From a virus (taxonomy: Duplodnaviria; Caudoviricetes), in IMG/VR virus record IMGVR_UViG_2791355391_000001, positions 182-64,181 of that record: a stretch of 64,000 bases of DNA; one strand, given 5' to 3'. Under the pieces are notes generated by a model, which was not told where the DNA came from, searched no databases, and saw only the letters and a list, made by a program, of their open reading frames with translations. A program made the translations under genes and the position numbers. The number at the start of each line of letters is the position of its first letter. The first letter of the stretch is position 1. Below, piece by piece: positions 42,004 through 55,322 of this stretch.

Positions 42004-42038
42004 CGTTTTCTCCGGTGGCGCAGTAGGTTAACGGTTGT

Positions 42039-42281
42039 TCAGGCCGTTGATTTCATATTATCAGTTGAGGGTGAAATGTGGTAGCCGAGGCGTCGAAGAA
42101 ATGCCGTCATTGTGGACAAATTAAACACAGACTCATCATCAAGCAACGGCCTGAGCGATACCAGACCATTTTTGCTATAAACCAGATGGTTATCACCTGC
42201 CGGTATGGACCCCATGATCACTCCGTCAGAACGACGGACGATATCATACCACTCTGCTTGCTCAACCACCTGCACCTCCAC
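42039..42281 (-). CDS. Hypothetical protein downstream of a LexA box
   Basis: About 80 aa, start uncertain. Confidence 0.55.
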   Translation of the reverse strand: MEVQVVEQAEWYDIVRRSDGVIMGSIPAGDNHLVYSKNGLVSLRPLLDDESVFNLSTMTAFLRRLGYHISPSTDNMKSTA

Positions 42282-42383
42282 TACGTTCTTCTCGTTTTCA
42301 TCCTCGTCTTTAAATTACGTTACCAGACGATTTCAAAAGCCGAATAGCCAGAGAGAAGAAATTTCAAATTATTTCTAAAAAAA

Positions 42384-42403
42384 TACTGTGCTTATATACA
42401 GTA
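42384..42403. promoter_or_regulatory. LexA (SOS) box
   Basis: TACTGTGCTTATATACAGTA = CTG-N10-CAG. Confidence 0.8.
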
Positions 42404-42739
42404 TAATTAATTCTACGATTATTCAAGATGCCGATGGTACTTTTTTAAAACCGTATCCTACTGTTTTTATTGTGTTTTTCAAAATGAAACGGGCCAAGGG
42501 GAAGAGTTACGTCTTGTCGTTCTGTTCAGGCATTATGATGTAGCGCGGATCGGATGCTCAGGTCCGTTGGATGCTCGGCCCACGTTAGTAGCGCCCTCTT
42601 CTCAGAATATGCATTGGCTCAAACATGACCTGAAAAAATTCTCAGGCACCGCACAATCCAGATGGCCGGTCAGATTTGAGAGAAAAGTTGGCAATGCTAT
42701 CTTTAATACTTCGTGAACGTTGATAAGGGAGCTGCTGTT

Positions 42740-43129
42740 ATGGATAGGAAATTATCTGGTGGGTGTTTATGTGGGTTTATCAGATTCACAGCGGTGAACC
42801 CTTCTTCCTCTCATTCCTACTCCTGCGATATATGCCTGAAGCATTCTGGCTGCCAGACCGCAGTATGGCTTGAATTTCACTCTGATGATGTTGAATGGAC
42901 TGGCGAAGGGGGTGTTCCTTCCCTGTTCCGCTCATCCACAGCTTCATCCAGGGCATTTTGCGCCCGTTGTGGCACCTCAGTTGGCGCTATCGATGACACT
43001 CCAGTGATCGCTTTTCTGAGCGGTATCTTTGACAACAACGAGCAGGCCTTGTTTTCGCCACAATTTCACTCCTTTCAAGATATAAAACCTGAATGGTGGA
43101 AAAAAATCATGCCTGATACTGCTGTCTAA
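42740..43129 (+). CDS. GFA-family zinc-binding protein
   Basis: GGCLCG, CDIC, RAFCARCGT motifs; second cluster reads HSYSCDIC. Confidence 0.8.
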   Translation: MDRKLSGGCLCGFIRFTAVNPSSSHSYSCDICLKHSGCQTAVWLEFHSDDVEWTGEGGVPSLFRSSTASSRAFCARCGTSVGAIDDTPVIAFLSGIFDNNEQALFSPQFHSFQDIKPEWWKKIMPDTAV

Positions 43130-43682
43130 ATAATGAAGCAGTGTCATGAAGCCATCTCATGGCATTCAAAGTAACTGTGAAGCGAATAAGGTTAGTGTTT
43201 GTTTTGGTCCTTAACTGTCTGCAGTGATCGAGGGGCGGAAATTTTAGTTTAGGACATATTGCAGCGACTTTTGGACTGGCCCCACCCCGGTGAGTTATCA
43301 GGAATGCTGAAAGTTGATTCCAATAAGAGCGACTCACATTTGGTCTGGATGTGACCGTGGCGGATAGATATGTAAATGTATTATGGCGGGGCGCTCAAAG
43401 CTACATACTAAAATATCCAGATCAATTAACGAGATGAATGGATTGAAATTTTCAATCAAAAAAGAAGTACGAAAGATTCTGTAAGGATAACAAGGGAAAG
43501 CTGGGAAACTACGAACTTCTTCCCTCGAAGTTAAGTCAAGGTTAGCATCCCAGGATTTGGGAGTTGATTAGTGTAAAGTGGATGTTATGCTCAAATTATT
43601 CCATTTTTCATCCATACACCTTAAATATAAAAACATATCAACACAAAACACCCAGTCCTATATTTCATCCCAACCCTGTAAC

Positions 43683-44981
43683 TTAATGTTTAATCTTGTT
43701 AAAATTATTAGCCATTTTTTCATTAATTATGCCACCGCTCTTGTATTTTTTTTCTCGCAAAACATTATTAAAACAACTCAGTTCGGAAATGTTCTCCACC
43801 TGCGTAAAGTAGAATAATTTCAAAATAGTACATCGTACGAATGAACGAACAATTTGCAATTGTTGTATTGTGACAGATTTGGAACCGGCGTGAGCTATTT
43901 TTGAACGCATAGCATAAAATGATTTAACTTTCTTTTCAATTTCTATGCACTCTTTAGTTGACTCACCATTAATGTATGCACACTGCTCCGCAATACTTGA
44001 CATAATTGAAGGAGTGATAATACTTTTATCATCAATCTTCAGTAGTGCCTCAAGTGCAATAACTGTTTTTAGGTAAGCGCTAGAAAGATTGTTATCTGAA
44101 TAAGATTCCCCGAGCCATTCGACCGCCGTAGATATTCTTTTTTCAAAATTATTATCATAATCTAATACGATACGAGCCAACACATCGAAAAAGTCAACCA
44201 TCTCTCGAGGAAGATATTTTGACAAAGTTGAAATATCAAGATCGCCTTTGAATTGTTTTCTTACTTCGTCCCCACTAAAGATACCATACTCACTACTAAC
44301 GGTTGTATTTTGATATGGAGAGAATCGCATCCTCAAAATCCCTATTGAATAGGTTGAATGTAGCTCTCCTAACAAAAAAGCAATAAAATTTTCAAATGAA
44401 TTAAATGCAGCATCCGCAAGTTCTAAAGCTTTTTCTGGATCTCTGGATTTTACAGTGCATTTGATAATTGTTCTTTTTGATTCTACGCTTTGGATGCGTG
44501 AAAATCCATCATTCGGTAATTGCTCAATGAATTCATCTTTATGTCGTGGTAGCTGATAAATTATCAACGGTCCAATTTTGACCGGACCGGAAAAGTCATT
44601 AATTATTACACCATGAAATGTTCTTGTTACAATATAATCAACTGTATTTAGCGACTTGAGGTTCTTTAAAAACTCATCGACGCGACAATCAATATCTACT
44701 ATGGATTTCTTATCACATTCATGCAATGTCTGTCGTATTATCATAAGCAACCATCGTTGTGATAATCCCTCCCCATTTTTTGATATGAGGAAATCGTTCA
44801 TTGCCTGGCTAAGTTTTTCGCTATCAATAATTTTAACATAATCAGAAAATTCATACGCAGCTGATGTTATACCTCGATTAACAACCTCTCCATTACGGAA
44901 GTCACACGCTTCGAATATACGGGTGAGTATTTTTTCTTTACCTATTGCCATCTCATTACCCCTGTGAATTACGGATACCAA
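43683..44981 (-). CDS. HEPN-domain protein (ApeA-like architecture), start possibly 44951
   Basis: IALEALL and FYAMRSKIAHAG (RxxxxH); AT-rich. Confidence 0.75.
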   Translation of the reverse strand: MVSVIHRGNEMAIGKEKILTRIFEACDFRNGEVVNRGITSAAYEFSDYVKIIDSEKLSQAMNDFLISKNGEGLSQRWLLMIIRQTLHECDKKSIVDIDCRVDEFLKNLKSLNTVDYIVTRTFHGVIINDFSGPVKIGPLIIYQLPRHKDEFIEQLPNDGFSRIQSVESKRTIIKCTVKSRDPEKALELADAAFNSFENFIAFLLGELHSTYSIGILRMRFSPYQNTTVSSEYGIFSGDEVRKQFKGDLDISTLSKYLPREMVDFFDVLARIVLDYDNNFEKRISTAVEWLGESYSDNNLSSAYLKTVIALEALLKIDDKSIITPSIMSSIAEQCAYINGESTKECIEIEKKVKSFYAMRSKIAHAGSKSVTIQQLQIVRSFVRCTILKLFYFTQVENISELSCFNNVLREKKYKSGGIINEKMANNFNKIKH

Positions 44982-45467
44982 ACCTCAATGCATAATGCAT
45001 TTTATTAACGTGTAGATTGTACTGCAATTTAAGTTTAGATGCCATTGAAAATATCAACTTTTTATAGAGTGGAGTTTTTACTGCATATCATGGAACCTAT
45101 TGAAGTAAACTCATTCGGATTGATTGACTTACTTTTATTATTGTTTAGCCTCGATACATCCGAAGAAGGAAAATTCAGTGTCACTGGTTGAGACGAACAC
45201 TATCTTGATACTTGGAGTGGAAGCGGCTTAATTAAATCAGTACAAAACAACAAATTCACTCTCAAGTTAATAAACAGACCAAGTTACAATATATCTAACA
45301 ATTTAGACTTCTTTGATTTTTCTTTGAAAAATAAGTTAATTGGAGAATAATGTACACTCCCTGAGCGTTATGGTTATCAGACCCTGTAAGTCTGTACCTG
45401 GATTAATGTTTACCGGATTGCTTTCGATTTTGACTTTGAATCCAATTAATAAAGGAAACACACTGTT

Positions 45468-45510
45468 TGAACTGAACTGAACTGAACTGAACTGAACTGA
45501 ACTGAACTGA
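45468..45510. repeat. Pentanucleotide microsatellite (TGAAC)8 + TGA
   Basis: Perfect 43-bp tandem array. Confidence 0.98.
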
Positions 45511-45638
45511 GAGTGTGACATCCTTTCTCCATTTAGCATCGCAGGTTGTTAGTAACGTCCGCTCTTGGCTGTGAGTTCAACCGATGGATGCAACACATTG
45601 AGATCAGAAAACTACTCTAACCATGATGGTATTATGGT

Positions 45639-45761
45639 TTATGCAACCTCCCTCACCTTACACATTTCCGATAAGTTCGCCCTCACCAGAGCCTCAGCAA
45701 ACGGCGGTGGGACAGCGTTTCCGCAGCGCGCCACCTGCTTATCTTTGGCGTATCTCATGCC
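45639..45761 (-). pseudogene. C-terminal remnant of a phage DNA cytosine methyltransferase
   Basis: YAKDKQVARCGNAVPPPFAEALVRANL = C5-MTase motif X region. Confidence 0.7.
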
Positions 45762-46027
45762 GAGGCAGACCTACTTGGTGGTCTATTGATGAGGAATGCT
45801 TAACAACATAGAAATAAAAAACCCGCCGAAGCGGGTTTTCTCATGCTGCCTTACCATTTCTCTCTGTCAACGTTGGCAAAATAGAAAGTAGAAGGCTCTC
45901 CAGTTGTGTAGTCTGGCAGTTTAGATGAGACGACTACCACTGGGTAAGTGGCATTGACGCCATACTCAAGTAGTAAGCTAACCCGCCAAGCATTAACTAA
46001 CCACTTTATTATGGCTACATCTAACAT

Positions 46028-46471
46028 TTATTTCAGAAACTTGTTATACACGAAGAACTCAGTATCTCGCACAAATCCATTACGCTCATACAACGCCTGT
46101 GCACGGATGTTATCTGTAGCGGTACTGAGCATAATAAATGCCGAATCGCTCTCCTTCGCCAGTTGCTCAGCACGTGAGATTAGTTTGTGTGCCACACCAT
46201 GCTTACGAGCTGACTCATCAACGAAAAGGTCATAAAGCAACCAAATACGTTTCATCTCAAGAGAGCAAAATAAAGGATAGAGCTGCGTAAAGCCTACCGC
46301 TTTCCCATCAACCTCGGCGTAAAAGATCACGGACTCATTAAGCTGAAGGCGCTTGAGAATAAAATCTCTGGCCTGCGAGGCATTTTCTTCGACCTCGTAG
46401 AAACGACGGTACCCGAGATACAGGGGAAGGATAGTATCCACATCATGTGGTTGAGCCTGGTAAATCTTCAT
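46028..46471 (-). CDS. GNAT acetyltransferase
   Basis: LYDLFVDESARKHGVAHKLI, NIRAQALYERNGF. Confidence 0.9.
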   Translation of the reverse strand: MKIYQAQPHDVDTILPLYLGYRRFYEVEENASQARDFILKRLQLNESVIFYAEVDGKAVGFTQLYPLFCSLEMKRIWLLYDLFVDESARKHGVAHKLISRAEQLAKESDSAFIMLSTATDNIRAQALYERNGFVRDTEFFVYNKFLK

Positions 46472-46614
46472 ACAAAAACCTCATAACTAATGAGCGTATA
46501 ATTGTATTACAAATAATTTTTCCGATTTGTCCTTTTGTGGGCTTAAGTTCACTTTTCGCCCCCCCATTCTCCTGTTGGATTGATTTTTCGCCATAAAAGA
46601 TAAAACCTGCCGAA

Positions 46615-47025
46615 GCGGGCTTTATCATATACATGACCGGTGCAGCGCTGAACCGGGGGGACGTAAACAATATCCGCAAGGCCATGAAAAGCGCCAAGAT
46701 ACCGGGCAACTTCCGTAACCTGTTTATGTACTCGCCCAATGGTAAAAAGGGCTGCATCCAGATAATACCGCTGTCAGAGATCGCGGCGAAGGATGAATTT
46801 CTGAATATCAAGAACGTCAGCCGAGATGATAGGATGGCAGCGCACCGCGTGCCACCACAGATGATGGGAATTATGCCTAATAACGTAGGAGGTTTTGGTG
46901 ATGTTGAAAAGGCCAGCAGTGTTTTTGTACGCAATTAGTTAGTTCCACTGCAAAAACGATTAAAGGAACTTAACGAATAGTTAGGCGAGGACGTTATTAG
47001 TTTTGAATCTTATACTTTATGTTAA
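46615..47025 (+). pseudogene. C-terminal remnant of a P2-like portal gene (gpQ) with two in-frame stops
   Basis: AGFIIYMT...GNFRNLFMYSPNGKK...AAHRVPPQMMGIMPNNVGGFGDVEKA...RN*LVPLQKRLKELNE*LGEDVISFESYTL. Confidence 0.9.
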
Positions 47026-47077
47026 CCAAACTTTTAATCAATAATACAACTATGGCACTTAATGTGCCATAGCACCT

Positions 47078-47926
47078 CTATTCTTCCATAATCAAAATGT
47101 CAGCATCATTAAGAAACAATCCTTGCAATACGGACATATTCATGAGCCCTGACTTTTTAATAATAGCTTTTAAAAAAACATGCCGTTCATCAGTTAAAAA
47201 TGCAACCCCATCATTTCTAAACATATCAACCAGTTCATTCATTAATACTGATGCAGTTGCTAATAAGCTATGCTCTTCAAGAAAACAATATGTATAATAT
47301 GGGTCGTTAATATAACTTGCTAACAGTCCTTCCAAGCGATTCAAATCTCTCAAATCTTCTGGCACTGCTTCATAGCCATAATCAGGCTCAATGAAGGACG
47401 AACTTCTATAATTAACAAGTTCTCTACACTGGATAGCCCACTCAAAAACACTAATTGAATCAATTGTATTAGTATTGAGCTTGTGAGATTTACATAACTC
47501 AGCAAAGGCCTTAATAGTAGTTTTGTGATCTCCTTTTATTCTATTAGTGGAAATACGTATTGGTACAGCATTTTCCACGCACTCTAAAAAAAATATCTCC
47601 CCTTTTCCATTTTTGAAAATAGCATATCCCTCAAGAAGCAAAAAAGCTCTTAACGAATAAAAAATGGAATAATATAATTTAATTATGGCCCATGATGAAT
47701 GCCCCCTTCTAAGGCTGTATAGTGACTCCAAAAAACTTACAGATGCTTTGTAAAAAACATCTATTGAGTCACTCCTAATAGCATATTTCAAGTCTGACAA
47801 TTTACTAGCACTTAACTGAATCGAATCAATCCTATCTTTATATTGACCTAACTGAGTGGGATCCGAGCATCCCACTTCAGCCTCAATAAACTCCTGACAG
47901 AGATATCTTTTAAAATTCATATTCAT
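47078..47926 (-). CDS. HEPN-like protein, partner of DGQHR protein
   Basis: SWAIIKLYYSIFYSLRAFL, GDH, RELVNY resemble the HEPN YY..H..RxxxxY pattern; overlaps upstream stop. Confidence 0.6.
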   Translation of the reverse strand: MNMNFKRYLCQEFIEAEVGCSDPTQLGQYKDRIDSIQLSASKLSDLKYAIRSDSIDVFYKASVSFLESLYSLRRGHSSWAIIKLYYSIFYSLRAFLLLEGYAIFKNGKGEIFFLECVENAVPIRISTNRIKGDHKTTIKAFAELCKSHKLNTNTIDSISVFEWAIQCRELVNYRSSSFIEPDYGYEAVPEDLRDLNRLEGLLASYINDPYYTYCFLEEHSLLATASVLMNELVDMFRNDGVAFLTDERHVFLKAIIKKSGLMNMSVLQGLFLNDADILIMEE

Positions 47927-48959
47927 CCTGAGACGGTAGTGATGACAGTACGTTTTCTTCCAGCAATTCCTTCACTCTTTTCCTTGCTGTTTTACCATCA
48001 TGATTCTTTAATTCATCCCAGGTAATAAGTGTCGATTTCTCTAACGAAATAATTGACTTTATTGTATCAACAGTAAATGATTTCCTTTCAACGCATTGTG
48101 AAAGTAGTTTTTCAGTCAAGAAATCCACAGCCCCCGCAAAGCCAGCGGCTTTTACAAATGGATTCTTTGCTTTGCTATTCCAAATATTTTCTTTGTCGTA
48201 ATAGTATTTGATACCATTGAAGAAGTTTATGATCAAATTGCGTTGATTATCATATGTCCTAATATTATATTTCGCAAATGTTCCCGCTGGCTTAACATGC
48301 TCTTTTAAGGATTGAACAATGGTAGATAACTCGATATTACCAACGCCACGAGGTGACCCCGGAAACTTTATTAGCTTATAAAACGGAGATGTCTCTAAAT
48401 CATTTAGCTCACGAGCAATGTCAGTTATACGATTTATCGCATGAGTTTCATCATCTTCGAGTTCACCAAAAAGATCGTAAATTAAGCTCTTAGGTACTGG
48501 TTTTTGTTCTGTATTAATATTTAAGAAAATTTTTGCTGCTTGTGGCGTTGTTAATGATTCACATAAAGTAACTAATATGTCCATTTCTCCAACTTTAGGA
48601 TCTTCCTCCATAGCTTCTTCTAAACCCGCTAATCGATGCTGACCATCAATAACCTGAATAGATGCAGGAATAAAATCAAAAGAAATGACACCATCTTTAA
48701 CTTCAATATTTTTATCTGCATTCGTCCAGTTCAAAATAAATGAACTAAAGAATATATTACCATCAAGAACATATTTTTTAATACTTGTTATTCTTCTACT
48801 ATTAAGTACACGCTGAACGGCTCCTTCCTCATTATCTCGCCCTCGTACAGCAACGTAATACATGGGGATCAATTCTTTTACCTTCATAGAGAAAGTAAAT
48901 GCAGGAATATCACCAAAAACTGTTTCTAGACACTGATAACTAAGTTTATTTATTGCCAT
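47910..48959 (-). CDS. DGQHR-domain (DndB-like) protein
   Basis: VQRVLNSRRI, VIDGQHRLAG, IFLNINTEQKPV motifs. Confidence 0.9.
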   Translation of the reverse strand: MAINKLSYQCLETVFGDIPAFTFSMKVKELIPMYYVAVRGRDNEEGAVQRVLNSRRITSIKKYVLDGNIFFSSFILNWTNADKNIEVKDGVISFDFIPASIQVIDGQHRLAGLEEAMEEDPKVGEMDILVTLCESLTTPQAAKIFLNINTEQKPVPKSLIYDLFGELEDDETHAINRITDIARELNDLETSPFYKLIKFPGSPRGVGNIELSTIVQSLKEHVKPAGTFAKYNIRTYDNQRNLIINFFNGIKYYYDKENIWNSKAKNPFVKAAGFAGAVDFLTEKLLSQCVERKSFTVDTIKSIISLEKSTLITWDELKNHDGKTARKRVKELLEENVLSSLPSQDEYEF

Positions 48960-49052
48960 TATTCATTTACCTGCTTTATCAGTCAGTTGGAAAATTTTGC
49001 TGCTACATTACAACAATTGGGTTTGCCACACAATATATCGCGGTCGCGCGCG

Positions 49053-49071
49053 CTCGTATCCCCGCCACGCC
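49053..49071 (-). other. P2/186-like cos core (19 bp)
   Basis: Reverse complement GGCGTGGCGGGGATACGAG versus P2 GGCGAGGCGGGGAAAGCAC. Confidence 0.75.
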
Positions 49072-49108
49072 AACACGTTTTGTGTAATGGCTTCAAGCAA
49101 CTGCATGT

Positions 49109-49148
49109 GATGTAACCGGCCCGCCAGTTCTAACGGGCCGGTTACATC
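49109..49148. repeat. Perfect 15-bp inverted repeat beside the cos remnant
   Basis: GATGTAACCGGCCCG-N10-CGGGCCGGTTACATC. Confidence 0.85.
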
Positions 49149-49196
49149 TCACCTACAGTTCATTATCCCTCAGTATCTTTGATACATAAAAGTTGT

Positions 49197-49433
49197 TCAT
49201 TTGGCCCCCTCATGCAGCTGCGCTGCGATGCACGAAAAAAAAGACTCCCGCGTATGACTATTAAGCGCTGGTGCAAACGCAGCGTTAAGAACGGCAGCAT
49301 CACAGCCGTCATCGGTATAGAGCGCAATTTTTTTCTCAAGGCGCGCTTTGGCCTCCTGCAGCTGCATACCCCGGCAGGCACGCGGGATATACTCAGCAAT
49401 TTGAGCGATACATTTTTCGTTCTGTTTAAACAT
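49197..49433 (-). CDS. Hypothetical phage protein
   Basis: 78 aa, overlaps upstream gene. Confidence 0.6.
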   Translation of the reverse strand: MFKQNEKCIAQIAEYIPRACRGMQLQEAKARLEKKIALYTDDGCDAAVLNAAFAPALNSHTRESFFSCIAAQLHEGAK

Positions 49434-49629
49434 GCTTCACCCCGATAGGCTTGATGGTGTCCAGCAGCAGCCGGCGGCGCGTATTTTCTGCAAAGTGACG
49501 GCGCCCGGTTTCTTTGTGGTAAAACTCGTTTTTGCCAACGACCCACATCCGCTCTGTCTGGTGCAGTTTTTTTACCTGCGGACCGTCTTTGGTGATCACG
49601 ATGCCGGTATGGGTTTTCACAATTGTCAT
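49426..49629 (-). CDS. Hypothetical phage protein
   Basis: MTIVKTHTG..., GGAGG RBS, ATGA-coupled. Confidence 0.65.
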   Translation of the reverse strand: MTIVKTHTGIVITKDGPQVKKLHQTERMWVVGKNEFYHKETGRRHFAENTRRRLLLDTIKPIGVKHV

Positions 49630-49994
49630 AAGGCCTCCCGTGATGACGATGCCGGCGTACAGGTAAAAATCATTTCCTGAATATCGAGGAAACGCTGGAA
49701 TACAGGACAACCAAGCAGGCTGTAATTCATCCCTGACGCTGCCTTTGGCACCATCCCTAACCGTTTCATGTCAAAATCGATGACGGCGCGCTGATCGCGG
49801 AACAATCCCAAACGACCATGTCGTACAACCTCGCCAGTCGCTTCTGCTTCGGAAAAATATCGTTGGACAGTAGCGCGGCTCAGGCCCAGTTTGTTCATTG
49901 CCTCGGCGGTCGTGAGGCGCCCCTGATGCCTGGTGATCCGAATCACTGCGCGGACGTACTCTCTGCGCTCAATTGCTGACAATGCTCTAGCCAT
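49626..49994 (-). CDS. HTH protein (DUF977-like)
   Basis: LGLSRATVQRYF helix-turn-helix; after DnaC-like gene. Confidence 0.7.
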   Translation of the reverse strand: MARALSAIERREYVRAVIRITRHQGRLTTAEAMNKLGLSRATVQRYFSEAEATGEVVRHGRLGLFRDQRAVIDFDMKRLGMVPKAASGMNYSLLGCPVFQRFLDIQEMIFTCTPASSSREAL

Positions 49995-51658: not shown

Positions 51659-52453
51659 TTAAACTGGTGTGTTTTCATCACCAAGCACCCACAGCAAAGC
51701 CGCTGCGTATTCGCCGCTGGCGGTTTGAAGTTGCAGGGTGATTTCCTTACGGGATTTGAGACGAGGCTTTGTGTCGCCGAGGACAGCGCGCTGGCGGCGA
51801 GCTTTCTCGTGGCCAGTTACACCCTCTGCCGCTGCCTCTAACTGTTTGACCGTTTCCCGTTGCTTTTCCGGTGGCATATCGACCAGCTGACGAGCTTGAG
51901 TGACAGTGACTTTTCCAGCCTCAACCGCTGCCTGGACGGCCTGCGTAGCATCCAGTAGAGCCACGGTTGCCTGGACCGTTTTTACGCTGCAGCCAAAAAG
52001 CAGGGCAATGTCATTTTCGTCATGACCGTATTCCATCTGCTGAACCATTTTTTTTGCCCGGCCCAGTGGGGTATCTGGTTGCGTGATCTCGTTTTCGCTG
52101 ACCATGTATTTGGCCATTTGAATTGCCGAGCCGCGCTTAGCTATACCGGGTACCGGCCAGGGTTCCAGCCCTACCCGCTTTCTCCTGGCGTTTGCTTCCA
52201 TAGCGTTCTTTACGCGCTGCCGACCTGCAACCACGCAGGTTTTCCCTGTCTCTGGGTCCTTCCACACGATAATCGGTTCGAGTACCCCAAGTTCCATGAT
52301 GTTGAGGATCACAGCTTCATTAAGCGGTAGGTGTACTCGTTCGTCGTAAAGCGGGTGTGTTGTATCGGTCACCAGATGCAGGTTTTCCGGTTCGAAAAAC
52401 AGGACGTTGCTTTTACCGCTGGCGCCGTACGCGTCGATCGAGTTTTTAGCCAT
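51659..52453 (-). CDS. ParB/Srx-like domain protein
   Basis: GVLEPIIV, VVAGRQRVK, SEN, then HTH. Confidence 0.75.
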   Translation of the reverse strand: MAKNSIDAYGASGKSNVLFFEPENLHLVTDTTHPLYDERVHLPLNEAVILNIMELGVLEPIIVWKDPETGKTCVVAGRQRVKNAMEANARRKRVGLEPWPVPGIAKRGSAIQMAKYMVSENEITQPDTPLGRAKKMVQQMEYGHDENDIALLFGCSVKTVQATVALLDATQAVQAAVEAGKVTVTQARQLVDMPPEKQRETVKQLEAAAEGVTGHEKARRQRAVLGDTKPRLKSRKEITLQLQTASGEYAAALLWVLGDENTPV

Positions 52454-53934: not shown

Positions 53935-54393
53935 ATGGTAAAGCTATGCTTCCCACCCCTTCTTTCTCCCGGATTTCATGACCTTGATGATGCTCAGGTC
54001 AAATCACTTTGTGTGGATGCTTTTCCGGAATCCGTGAGAAGGAGTATGCTATACTGTAATTACATACAGTTAGTGAGTGATATAAGAAATATCAATAAGC
54101 AATTTAATTGTTTTATTGAGGTGTGGGTAGATGGATCATTTACCACTGAAAAGCCGGAGCCTGATGACATTGATATACTTTTAGTAATTGATTCTAATAG
54201 ACTTAATCTTGTTCCTGTGATGTTTCAACCACAGATTGAGAAGTTTTTAAACAGGCAGTACATTAAGCATAACTATAAGATTGACCTGCTATTGTTAGAA
54301 CATGGTAAGGACGAGGACAGAATGCATTGGAGGGGGGTGTTCGGGCATGACAGAGAGGACACACCTAAAGGTATAGTGAGGATATCATTATGA
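53935..54393 (+). CDS. Pol-beta-superfamily nucleotidyltransferase-like protein (DUF6932-like)
   Basis: VWVDGSFTTEKPEPDDIDILLV = hGS...DhD, later IDLL. Confidence 0.75.
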   Translation: MVKLCFPPLLSPGFHDLDDAQVKSLCVDAFPESVRRSMLYCNYIQLVSDIRNINKQFNCFIEVWVDGSFTTEKPEPDDIDILLVIDSNRLNLVPVMFQPQIEKFLNRQYIKHNYKIDLLLLEHGKDEDRMHWRGVFGHDREDTPKGIVRISL

Positions 54394-55322
54394 ACAGTAA
54401 CAGTAATATGACCGCTTTAAAGGGGCGCATAAAGTTCGTTCAGGATAAACTCGACTCAATGTCCGCCAAATCGGAAATGTCCTTTGCAGACAGACTCATT
54501 TTCAACAATATGGACTCCTATCTTAGCGATCTTAAAGCAGAACAAGTTGCAGAAGATGCACGCCATCCATTGCTAGATTTTATGGAGCTAAGACTGAAAG
54601 GTGTAGTTGTTGACCTTGGTACAATTCCATTAGAGTTGCTGGGGGTGATATCCCATAACCTGGCTGCGCTTGTCCAGCGCGCTACCCACAAGCTTGCTTC
54701 CGGGAAAGACTCTCATAAGGTTCCTTATGACATAAAGAGCTCATTGAATATGAGGCTTGCTGAATTATCACCGGGCTCAACTCGACTTGGATTAACCTTT
54801 TCTACCGGTGATTGTGAGCTTGTGGAAACGGTATCAAGTAAGGCAGTGAAGGAGATTATTGGGCTGCTGGACACCAATGACGCGTCAGTAATGATGAACC
54901 AAATAGCCGAGATAGGTTATAACTCTGCACAAAGCCTAAAAAGAATTGTCGAGGAGTGCGATAAAAACCACGTTGATTTTGATCTATCATGGATTGGCCC
55001 ATTTAGCGATGGTGCGCGTATAGTGAAAGTAAGCTCCAGGAAAATCAAAATGTTAAGCGACCGTTTGGCATCAACCACCATATCGCAACCAGTTACTGAG
55101 TCTATCGTCGGAGTACTGGCATCATTATCAAAATATGGCAAGATGGATATTGAACTTGATGGTGAGAAAATCAAAGCTTCATTTCCAATAGAAATGTTAG
55201 ATGAAATACAGAAAAGTCATAAGGTTGGCCAACAGGTTTCATTGTCAGTAGAAGTAACTGACATTTACAATGAAAACCTTGGATTACATCGTAAAAATTA
55301 CCGAGTTAAATCTTTGAGATAG
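54390..55322 (+). CDS. Hypothetical protein coupled to the NTase gene
   Basis: 310 aa, ATGA overlap; beta-rich, possibly OB-fold C-terminus. Confidence 0.75.
   Translation: MNSNSNMTALKGRIKFVQDKLDSMSAKSEMSFADRLIFNNMDSYLSDLKAEQVAEDARHPLLDFMELRLKGVVVDLGTIPLELLGVISHNLAALVQRATHKLASGKDSHKVPYDIKSSLNMRLAELSPGSTRLGLTFSTGDCELVETVSSKAVKEIIGLLDTNDASVMMNQIAEIGYNSAQSLKRIVEECDKNHVDFDLSWIGPFSDGARIVKVSSRKIKMLSDRLASTTISQPVTESIVGVLASLSKYGKMDIELDGEKIKASFPIEMLDEIQKSHKVGQQVSLSVEVTDIYNENLGLHRKNYRVKSLR

Follow-up and report, generated by a model that had tools for sequence, protein, structure and literature searches.

A stand-alone DGQHR protein and a variant HEPN-fold protein as a candidate two-gene defence cassette of a lambdoid provirus

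What does a DGQHR protein do when its constant neighbour is a HEPN-like gene instead of a DNA-modification gene? To our knowledge, the function of the DGQHR family is known for DndB and DpdB alone. The question is raised by a pair of genes, here called A and B, in the 64,000-nucleotide stretch analysed in this work ("the window"), which comprises positions 182 to 64,181 of the IMG/VR provirus record IMGVR_UViG_2791355391_000001 (64,181 bp, rated complete by CheckV). The window is a lambdoid provirus, and the pair is located in it between the lambdoid replication genes and NinB/Q. A preliminary description of this DNA had reported two overlapping genes of 349 and 282 codons, and both open reading frames (ORFs) are indeed found, on the minus strand. 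We are inclined to regard the pair as a two-gene system, as yet without a name, that would serve in defence or abortive infection and in which a ParB-like switch dependent on nucleoside triphosphates (NTPs) would control a variant HEPN RNase, a function that we infer from the conservation, predicted folds and genomic context described below.

Conservation of the A-B pair

When loci were retrieved with B alone, 38 were obtained; in 37 of them the gene immediately upstream of B is an A homologue, and the remaining one (L026) is truncated at the end of its contig. These 38 loci span at least seven phyla, with Pseudomonadota, Bacteroidota, Bacillota, Verrucomicrobiota, Planctomycetota, Acidobacteriota and a metagenome-assembled genome (MAG) of Paceibacterota among their carriers. 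Because of this linkage, and because A itself scores 114 bits against the DGQHR family model TIGR03187 and thus passes its cut-off of 58.85, the pairing lies far beyond chance, and the co-conserved operon of a DGQHR gene and a HEPN-like gene that had been proposed from the sequence of the window is borne out by its relatives. In the 32 loci with both ORFs called, the two genes overlap in 20, are separated by gaps of 1-8 nucleotides (nt) in 11 and by 126 nt in one, the overlaps being upper bounds because starts were set at the first start codon. Across 29 loci, the pairwise identities of A rise and fall with those of B (Mantel r 0.89, with 0 of 2000 permutations as high), and ratios of nonsynonymous to synonymous polymorphism (pN/pS) of 0.06-0.26 among close relatives indicate purifying selection on both genes. 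Among 401 genomes of a single order, a close A homologue is present in two, and B adjoins it in both.

In the window, the frames of A and B overlap by 17 nt as annotated, or by 11 nt if B begins at its third codon (47920). Since 21 of the 22 aligned B homologues begin at residue 3 of the window protein (MNF/MNS...), the start of B is probably at 47920, which gives a protein of 280 residues and the shorter overlap. The bases 47910-47926 encode, in two frames, both the C-terminus of A (E-Y-E-F-stop, in agreement with the tail E-Y-[EK]-F conserved across its homologues) and the N-terminus of B (M-N-F); therefore, part of the conservation of each of these termini may stem from the other.

Two peculiarities were noted among the relatives. 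In one locus (L054:2501-3356) A is intact and the B homologue is interrupted, its sequence lying in two frames owing either to a frameshift or to an error of assembly. Of the four distant DGQHR genes in the sample of 401 genomes, two stand-alone ones (in L056:216-2229 and L058:221-2151), with about 28% identity to A, overlap a downstream ORF of 335-346 codons. The products of the L056 and L058 ORFs match the B profile faintly, in helices 1-2 and at the R..NY motif, with E of 5.8e-6 and 1.9e-3 in a tiny search space, which hints at a wider class of DGQHR and variant-HEPN pairs.

The DGQHR protein and its HEPN-fold partner

The motifs previously quoted for A are all present (Q49-R50 within AVQR, D105-G-Q-H-R109 and F145-L-N-I-N149) and are invariant or nearly so in 27 sequences; D105-G-Q-H-R109 and Q49-R50 belong to the strictly invariant set, which comprises 39 columns overall. 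The scores of A against the models that define the named subfamilies are far under their cut-offs, with 33.9 bits for the DndB equivalog TIGR03233 (cut-off 328), 51.3 bits for the DpdB equivalog NF041060 (cut-off 300) and 88.2 bits for TIGR04172, the "DNA phosphorothioation-associated DGQHR protein 1" (cut-off 450). The match to the Pfam family DndB (PF14072) has E 4.5e-19 and covers only residues 19-179 of 349, the match to PF03235 (DUF262/GmrSD_N) has E 0.046 and 14.3 bits, under the cut-off of 33.2, and the Pfam scan of A returned neither a DUF1524 nor a nucleotidyltransferase match. In PADLOC, the models of DpdB (9e-14) and DndB (7e-9) are the only ones matched by A at E<=0.1, and the same is true of 27 out of 27 A relatives. 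The relatives detected at E<=1e-20 form 1,155 clusters, named, where they are named at all, "DGQHR domain-containing protein". A search of PDB sequences with the A profile returned nothing, and cultured-phage records contain no close match, the best being a DGQHR gene of an Acinetobacter phage at 27% identity. As judged from these comparisons, A is an orphan DGQHR protein, distinct from DndB, DpdB and the DzbA protein of the Dazbog system.

The AlphaFold2 (AF2) model of A has a predicted local distance difference test score (pLDDT) of 86.9 and comprises an N-terminal domain of the ParB/Srx fold (residues ~10-168) and a helical C-terminal domain (~169-340). Foldseek relates the model to the N-terminal domain of pNOB8 ParB (E 3.9e-4), and the VIA structure search finds, over residues ~10-168, PadC (Z 8.1, root mean square deviation (rmsd) 3.0, 99 aligned residues), pNOB8 ParB (7.9) and KorB (7.2), followed by sulfiredoxin (6.8), SspE (5.2) and BrxU (4.5). 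For the C-terminal domain (169-340) VIA gives no clear structural match (Z<=4.5), and there is no HEPN protein among the matches listed; the presence of a fused HEPN domain, as stated for DndB (PMC3632139), could not be confirmed for A.

In the AF2 model of B (pLDDT 89.2, predicted template modelling score (pTM) 0.90), helices 40-73 and 77-98 are followed by an insert, composed of strands at 101-115 and a helix at 133-144, and then by helices 160-174 and 220-238. As modelled, B thus has the HEPN pattern, namely an up-down bundle of four helices in which helices 2 and 3 are separated by an insert. In an exhaustive VIA search, HEPN proteins occupy the first seven places and most of the first 15 (Z 10.7 to 7.3), the best being AF0298 (2hsb; Z 10.7, rmsd 2.8, 121 aligned residues), with 4nqf (9.4), 1ufb (9.2), 8xdj (8.7), the HEPN domain of sacsin (8.6) and Csm6 (8.1) also on the list, and AbiV (9bj5; 6.5) and HepS (6.0) lower down. 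A sub-threshold match to the Pfam family HEPN (PF05168) recurs in 23 of 36 members of the B family, with a best E of 5.4e-4. We regard B as a HEPN protein because the HEPN-dominated top of the VIA ranking, the recurrent weak Pfam matches and the geometry of the motifs agree with each other.

The motifs quoted for B are likewise present (W79-x5-Y85-Y86-S87-x-F89-Y90, H134 and R168-x3-N172-Y173), and W79, Y86, H134, R168 and Y173 are identical in 151 out of 151 sequences. According to the secondary structure of the model, R168 falls at the C-terminus of helix 160-174, which is the place of the Rx4-6H motif in HEPN proteins, and the invariant H134 lies within the insert between helices 2 and 3. 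In passages of the survey by Anantharaman 2013 (PMC3710099), AF0298 and AbiV are described as HEPN proteins that have kept the Arg and lost the His, and that possess an alternative conserved His contributed by the helix-2/3 insert, which has been proposed to form an alternative active site. On the evidence of the model, B is a HEPN variant of this AF0298/AbiV type, and H134 and R168 would belong to the predicted alternative site. AbiV has been reported, in the abstract of a preprint, to act as an RNase on ribosomal RNA in vitro. The earlier reading of B as HEPN-like thus stands as regards the fold, with the correction that this HEPN is non-canonical: it has Rx4Y and an alternative His, and its Pfam match remains under threshold.

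The B family has received little annotation. Its 23 close relatives in a set of 5.8 billion proteins are all unnamed or "hypothetical", and the profile search at E<=0.001 yields 646 clusters (50% identity), of which 394 remain at E<=1e-30, with lengths of 219-292 residues among the 150 matches listed. PADLOC has no match for B at E<=0.1 or for any of its 36 relatives, the Pfam family HEPN_AbiV is matched neither by B (E<=0.1) nor by its relatives (E<=0.05), and the B profile retrieves from PDB sequences only a chance match (botrocetin, E 0.73). A protein atlas relates B to HEPN_AbiV with a score of 0.79, which we treat as a weak lead.

The mobile cassette and its surroundings

The features of the cassette are listed in Table 1. 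The region 47000-48999 has a guanine-plus-cytosine (GC) content of 0.32-0.35, as compared to 0.45 in 46500-46999 and 0.51 in 49000-49499. The window has only the segment 46625-49085, at 96.4% identity, in common with a lambdoid phage of another kind (L043), whose genes include NinG, Q and replication genes of the O/P type, and in the sister prophages (L040-L042, plus L044 and L046) the segment 46550-53120 is common to all at ~96% identity, after which the similarity jumps to 42021. Judging from these alignments, the cassette moves between lambdoid backbones and is independent of them.

Table 1. Coordinates of the A-B cassette and its parts within the window
Feature	Positions	Strand	Remarks
Mobile cassette	46625..49085	minus	leader, A, B, hairpin and portal remnant; 2.46 kb
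GC-rich leader, probable promoter region	48960..49085	minus	travels with the cassette
Gene A	47910..48959	minus	349 amino acids, ATG start; stand-alone DGQHR protein
Gene B	47078..47926	minus	282 amino acids, ATG start; variant HEPN-fold protein
Terminator-like hairpin	47049..47073	minus	5 nt past the B stop; 10-bp stem with 5 GC pairs, T-rich tail
P2-like (Peduoviridae) portal 3' fragment	46633..47006	plus	convergent with B; phrog_68

The portal fragment matches phrog_68 with E 3.8e-45 at profile positions 211-311 of 344, and its DNA is ~80% identical to the portal genes of 24 phage records (22 from Klebsiella, one from Yersinia and one from Felsduovirus) and of 155 E. coli genomes. The Klebsiella peduovirus MK416020.1 has an intact portal gene, and 62 nt beyond it lies a convergent abortive-infection gene of the AIPR type, with the replication endonuclease further on. 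The P2 defence hotspot has been described, in passages of Rousset 2022 (PMC9122126), as the cos-proximal region between gpA and the portal gene gpQ. Because the portal remnant is inside the cassette and convergent with B, in the same geometry as the cargo of the Klebsiella P2-like phage, the sequence points to an origin of the cassette in the P2 defence hotspot. The preliminary description had taken this origin as independent support for a defence role; the remnant and the matching geometry agree with it, but the provirus of the window is of the lambdoid and not of the P2 kind.

A promoter scan found 15 sites versus 10.5 +/- 3.0 in shuffled sequence, i.e. no excess, and the sole consensus promoter-like site (48986-48958) overlaps the ATG of A and is unconvincing. 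The Rfam search of 46400-49300 returned only a chance microRNA match (E 0.4). Between the upstream prophage gene and the leader there is a perfect 12-bp GC-rich inverted repeat with a 10-nt loop (49115-49150), without a following T-run; RNA-library cover is near zero across 49064-49174, which spans this repeat, in all four runs described below.

Fourteen RNA-library runs, from four studies and one organism, hold 0.27-0.45 of the sampled words of the cassette, and four of them, one per study, were examined. Their contigs are ~98% identical to the window and thus derive from relatives of its cassette. In run X1 the contig 46657-48972 has a depth of 1209, versus 16.1 for the adjacent prophage contig 49148-49700; in X2 the contig 46820-48942 has a depth of 181.6 versus 6.4 for the flank, and in X5 the contig 47416-49013 has 186.5 versus 3.7-10.2, so that in these three studies the cassette is ~20-75 times deeper than the adjacent prophage genes of the same run. 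In X11 the cassette appears as three pieces with depths of 7.5-15, with 47510-47842 and the flanks uncovered, gaps that carry no evidential weight. These data fit a moron with transcription of its own at a time when the lytic genes around it are quiet. The ends of the contigs in the four runs, at 48942-49013, provide a weak hint that the transcript starts in the leader, and the hairpin at 47049-47073 is apparently no complete stop, since the contigs of X1 and X2 run to 46657 and 46820, respectively.

For the gene neighbourhoods, two ORFs on each side were inspected in 28 loci, which amounts to 99 flanking ORFs. No third conserved gene was found among them around the A-B pair. A methylase is present in one of the 28 loci, which speaks against a conserved methylase partner. 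The neighbours include markers of mobility (integrases, recombinases and a type IV secretion system coupling protein), genes typical of genetic conflict (McrBC with a C5 methylase, a TIR protein, a NERD-UvrD helicase and a Schlafen/AlbA_2 protein), genes for HipA, PIN, Phd, FitA and Fic proteins, and ordinary housekeeping genes. Among other homologous pairs, that of L045 lies beside a P4-type primase and integrases, and that of L047 beside tail genes. In a MAG of Eubacteriales (L011:6038-13855), a gene for a C5 cytosine methylase ends 16 nt before A, and a McrB-like gene paired with one for a DUF2357/PD-(D/E)XK protein is located on the other side, so that modification and restriction genes are densely packed around the pair.

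The absence of dndCDE and dpd genes around the pair, noted earlier for the window, extends to its relatives, as no dnd or dpd gene is present among the 99 flanking ORFs; a PADLOC comparison of 62 other ORFs of the window gave no match at E<=1e-6. In particular, the flanking ORFs contain no match to a transglycosylase or any other dpd-type Pfam family, DpdA not having been searched as a family, and DndC has no match within the 64-kb provirus record and exceeds its cut-off in none of five host genomes that carry the pair, each of which holds a single DGQHR gene.

Other loci of the same provirus deserve mention. A segment of ~4.5 kb (42021-46550) is missing in the sister prophages L040-L042 and L044, which are ~96% identical elsewhere; it contains a GFA-family gene (42713-43129), a 432-codon ORF on the minus strand (43683-44981) and a GNAT acetyltransferase gene (46028-46471), and looks like an extra cargo insertion adjoining the A-B cassette. 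The 432-codon ORF lies in a second low-GC stretch (0.33-0.36), and its product has a canonical-looking Rx4H motif (R-S-K-I-A-H) near the C-terminus. Pfam, PADLOC, NCBIfam and PHROG give no match for it, and the protein atlas offers leads only, to the clusters HEPN_Apea and ApeA_NTD1 (0.90 and 0.88); from its sequence features, this ORF may represent another HEPN candidate for defence, in this case with one gene. On the plus strand (53935-55322), immediately beyond the gene for the cI-like repressor, two genes match the PADLOC candidate system PDC-M63 (M63A with E 1.3e-40 and M63B with E 5.4e-44), which makes this region a candidate for a second defence locus in the provirus.

Proposed function and relationship to known systems

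It is tempting to consider the cassette as a self-contained anti-phage or phage-exclusion unit, carried as a moron by temperate phages and by other mobile elements. In this scenario, A would bind or hydrolyse an NTP via its ParB/Srx-fold domain and would act as a sensor or switch, probably on DNA, like the ParB-like domains of DndB, DpdB, SspE, GmrSD/BrxU and DzbA. B, translationally coupled to A, would form a complex with it and would be the RNase effector, whose release or activation could halt translation in infected cells and thereby lead to abortive infection. The NTP binding or hydrolysis by A, the A-B complex, the cleavage of RNA by B, the trigger and the protection against phages are inferred, and analogies are offered by Dazbog, by SspE, GmrSD and BrxU, by the NTP binding of DndB-like proteins and by the RNase AbiV. 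With respect to NTP binding, a DndB-like protein is reported, in parts of the published account, to have bound ATP and GTP (PMC12704722).

A number of observations weigh against this interpretation. No named system matches the pair, and its function is deduced from context and domains. The assignment of B to HEPN is exposed on several sides: VIA Z-scores below ~13 may reflect a generic helical-bundle arrangement, and those of B, at 8-11, are within that range; Foldseek finds no PDB match for the B model at E<=0.001; the score of B against PF05168 (HEPN-T) is 18.7 bits, under the gathering score of 22; and the canonical His of Rx4-6H is absent, since in R168-E-L-V-N-Y173 the position +5 is Tyr in 151 out of 151 sequences. 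B evolves faster than A, with a mean pairwise identity of 0.29 versus 0.43, and on the same contigs B is 44-47% identical where A is 74-78%. The pair is rare (two of 401 genomes in one order), the 5,426 complete E. coli genomes, searched in near and distant modes, and the 50,697 phage records contain no close match to A or B, and the longer forms of B that were searched include no A-B fusion, which is weak evidence. With regard to the RNA libraries, in X5 the 3' part of B forms a separate contig (46958-47424) of depth 6.7, the contigs reveal neither the strand nor the true ends of a transcript, and the depth is one figure per contig in libraries that can contain DNA; nevertheless, carry-over of DNA is hard to invoke as the source of a 20-75-fold excess in three studies.

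The different rates of evolution also make the reversed assignment of roles a live rival. A, extremely conserved with its 39 invariant columns in 27 sequences, could be the enzymatic effector, either a nuclease of the ParB/Srx type or an NTP-degrading enzyme, and B, which has lost the canonical HEPN His and diverges much faster, as phage-contacting sensors often do, could be a non-catalytic HEPN-fold sensor, specificity subunit or regulator by which a component of the phage is recognised; the pair would still serve defence. Nuclease and NTPase members of the ParB superfamily in conflict systems are discussed in passages of a recent paper (PMC10853773). We nonetheless think this arrangement unlikely, for H134, R168 and Y173, invariant in all 151 B sequences, resemble a catalytic set and match the alternative site of AF0298 and AbiV, of which AbiV is reported, in the preprint mentioned above, to be an active RNase, and no nuclease motif was identified in A. 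We would also give little credence to an addiction module of the toxin-antitoxin (TA) type, with B as the toxin and the upstream A as a protein antitoxin, that stabilises its carrier elements and has no dedicated anti-phage role. HEPN toxins with cognate antitoxins are well known, and the structures 8xdj, 5yep and 7ae2 are among the fold matches of B; the operon is tight, with the putative neutraliser first and the frames overlapping, and the pair occurs on prophages and integrative elements, beside other TA genes. However, a highly conserved 349-residue protein of the ParB fold, with predicted NTP binding, would be an unusual antitoxin, and the P2 hotspot origin, together with the position of an abortive-infection gene in the related phage, favours the exclusion of other phages. 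Moreover, TA and abortive infection are not mutually exclusive, so that this explanation overlaps with the defence system proposed here.

It is quite improbable that A works for the phage that carries it, be it as a ParB-like regulator that binds DNA, a partition protein or an anti-defence factor, with B as its cofactor and no protection of the host. The location of the cassette between the replication and nin genes would suit such a role, phages and prophages often encode proteins of the ParB fold, and parts of one study suggest that some fusions act in anti-defence (PMC12704722). On the other hand, the provirus has a separate ORF of 264 codons (51659-52453) whose product is, in an unchecked reading, putatively ParB-like; most of the related loci lie outside recognisable phages, the cassette is mobile independently of phage backbones, and its RNA-library cover is far deeper than that of the neighbouring lytic genes. 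Finally, the only named relatives of A are DndB, DpdB and the "DNA phosphorothioation-associated DGQHR protein 1", as would be expected of an accessory protein or regulator of a Dnd or Dpd system encoded elsewhere in the host. Yet the scores of A against all three equivalogs are far under their cut-offs, the 99 ORFs around 28 loci contain no dnd or dpd gene, none of the five hosts has DndC over the cut-off, and what constantly accompanies A is B rather than an enzyme of DNA modification, by which this role is essentially excluded.

The constant HEPN partner suggests a whole DGQHR subfamily that acts as an immune switch independent of DNA modification. The B family also offers a clean test of the 2013 prediction of an alternative histidine in HEPN proteins of this type. 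The cassette is a candidate superinfection-exclusion determinant of enterobacterial prophages, with a bearing on phage host range in laboratory and therapeutic settings, and would exemplify defence cargo passing from the P2 hotspot into lambdoid phages with a piece of the portal gene attached. A bolder version, which we put forward only tentatively, is that of a widespread two-gene immune system, with ~650 B clusters at 50% identity, in which an orphan DGQHR NTP switch, without DNA-modification machinery, controls a HEPN RNase with an alternative His/Arg(/Tyr) site, the two being encoded in a self-transcribed cassette that is exchanged between P2-type hotspots and lambdoid prophages. If this version holds, it would provide the first function of DGQHR proteins outside Dnd and Dpd, as well as the first protein-regulated case of the AF0298/AbiV-type HEPN site.

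Among the characterised systems with a DGQHR protein, A shares its ParB-like domain with DndB, the regulator of Dnd phosphorothioation, and with DpdB, the ATPase of the Dpd 7-deazaguanine system, which are its sole named relatives; DndB is described, in two papers, as a DNA-binding regulator modulated by ATP (PMC4507180; PMC10853773). It differs from both in falling under the equivalog cut-offs, in the restriction of the Pfam match to its N-terminal half, in the HEPN-fold partner, and in the lack of adjacent dndCDE or dpd genes and of DndC in the hosts tested. GmrSD, BrxU and SspE also possess an NTPase domain of the ParB/Srx fold, and they sense the state of DNA and control a nuclease. However, they combine DUF262 with an HNH-type DNase domain (DUF1524) in a single polypeptide, whereas A has a separate HEPN-fold partner and no DUF1524 match. 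On the side of B, the similarity to AF0298 (2hsb) and AbiV (9bj5) comprises the HEPN fold, the retained Arg, the lost His and the alternative His of the insert; unlike them, B is about twice the size (282 residues), with extra N- and C-terminal helices, and it has no significant sequence match to either. The partner of AbiV is an RNA antitoxin, whereas the conserved partner of B is a ParB-like protein, and the cassette has no Rfam match. A relationship to the HEPN-MNT toxin-antitoxin systems was considered and rejected, as the partner A has the ParB/Srx fold and no nucleotidyltransferase Pfam match.

The preliminary description took the two-gene Dazbog system to be based on the DndB domain and asked for its exclusion. 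This needs correction: according to passages of two papers that describe the system of Millman 2022 (PMC10952713; bioRxiv 10.1101/2022.08.27.505566), the first gene of Dazbog, DzbA, carries DUF262 (PF03235, of the DGQQR type), and the system acts by abortive infection, is triggered by a phage cytosine methylase and has been proposed to sense (methylated) DNA. The pair resembles Dazbog in having two genes, the first of them with an NTPase-type domain of the ParB/Srx superfamily, and differs in that the domain of A is DGQHR (PF14072/TIGR03187), not DUF262. The exclusion itself is supported by the PADLOC and Pfam comparisons, in which A hits DpdB and DndB only and B nothing; the match of A to PF03235 stays at E 0.046, and no Dazbog model of PADLOC-DB 2.0.0, a release that we take to include them, was matched by A, by B, or by their 27 and 36 relatives, respectively.

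The loci closest in arrangement are those of mobile defence hotspots. Pairs of a ParB-superfamily gene beside a HEPN gene were noted computationally in 2013, and passages of that work describe DUF262-type ParB proteins, canonical Rx4-6H HEPN families and, often, a methylase; B matches none of the Pfam HEPN families named there. Furthermore, the arrangement "DndB + hypothetical" is found among the P2-encoded loci of E. coli in Table S5A of Rousset 2022 (PMC9122126), in the file of which the name "DndB" has at least 25 occurrences, the two passages considered here both showing this arrangement. The main text of that paper does not discuss it, to judge from the zero occurrences of "DndB" there. 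At the level of Pfam domains the arrangement, as well as the hotspot, is the same as here, and homology to A and B could not be confirmed, as the table gives no sequences. In the published literature within the scope of our search, outside which were subscription journals and most supplements, we found no work that names, tests or analyses the A-B pair. As far as its sequences allow it to be placed, the pair is thus a relative in architecture of the Dazbog-type and ParB+HEPN hotspot loci, and yet stands outside both, with DGQHR in place of DUF262 in its first protein and a HEPN variant of the AF0298/AbiV type in its second.

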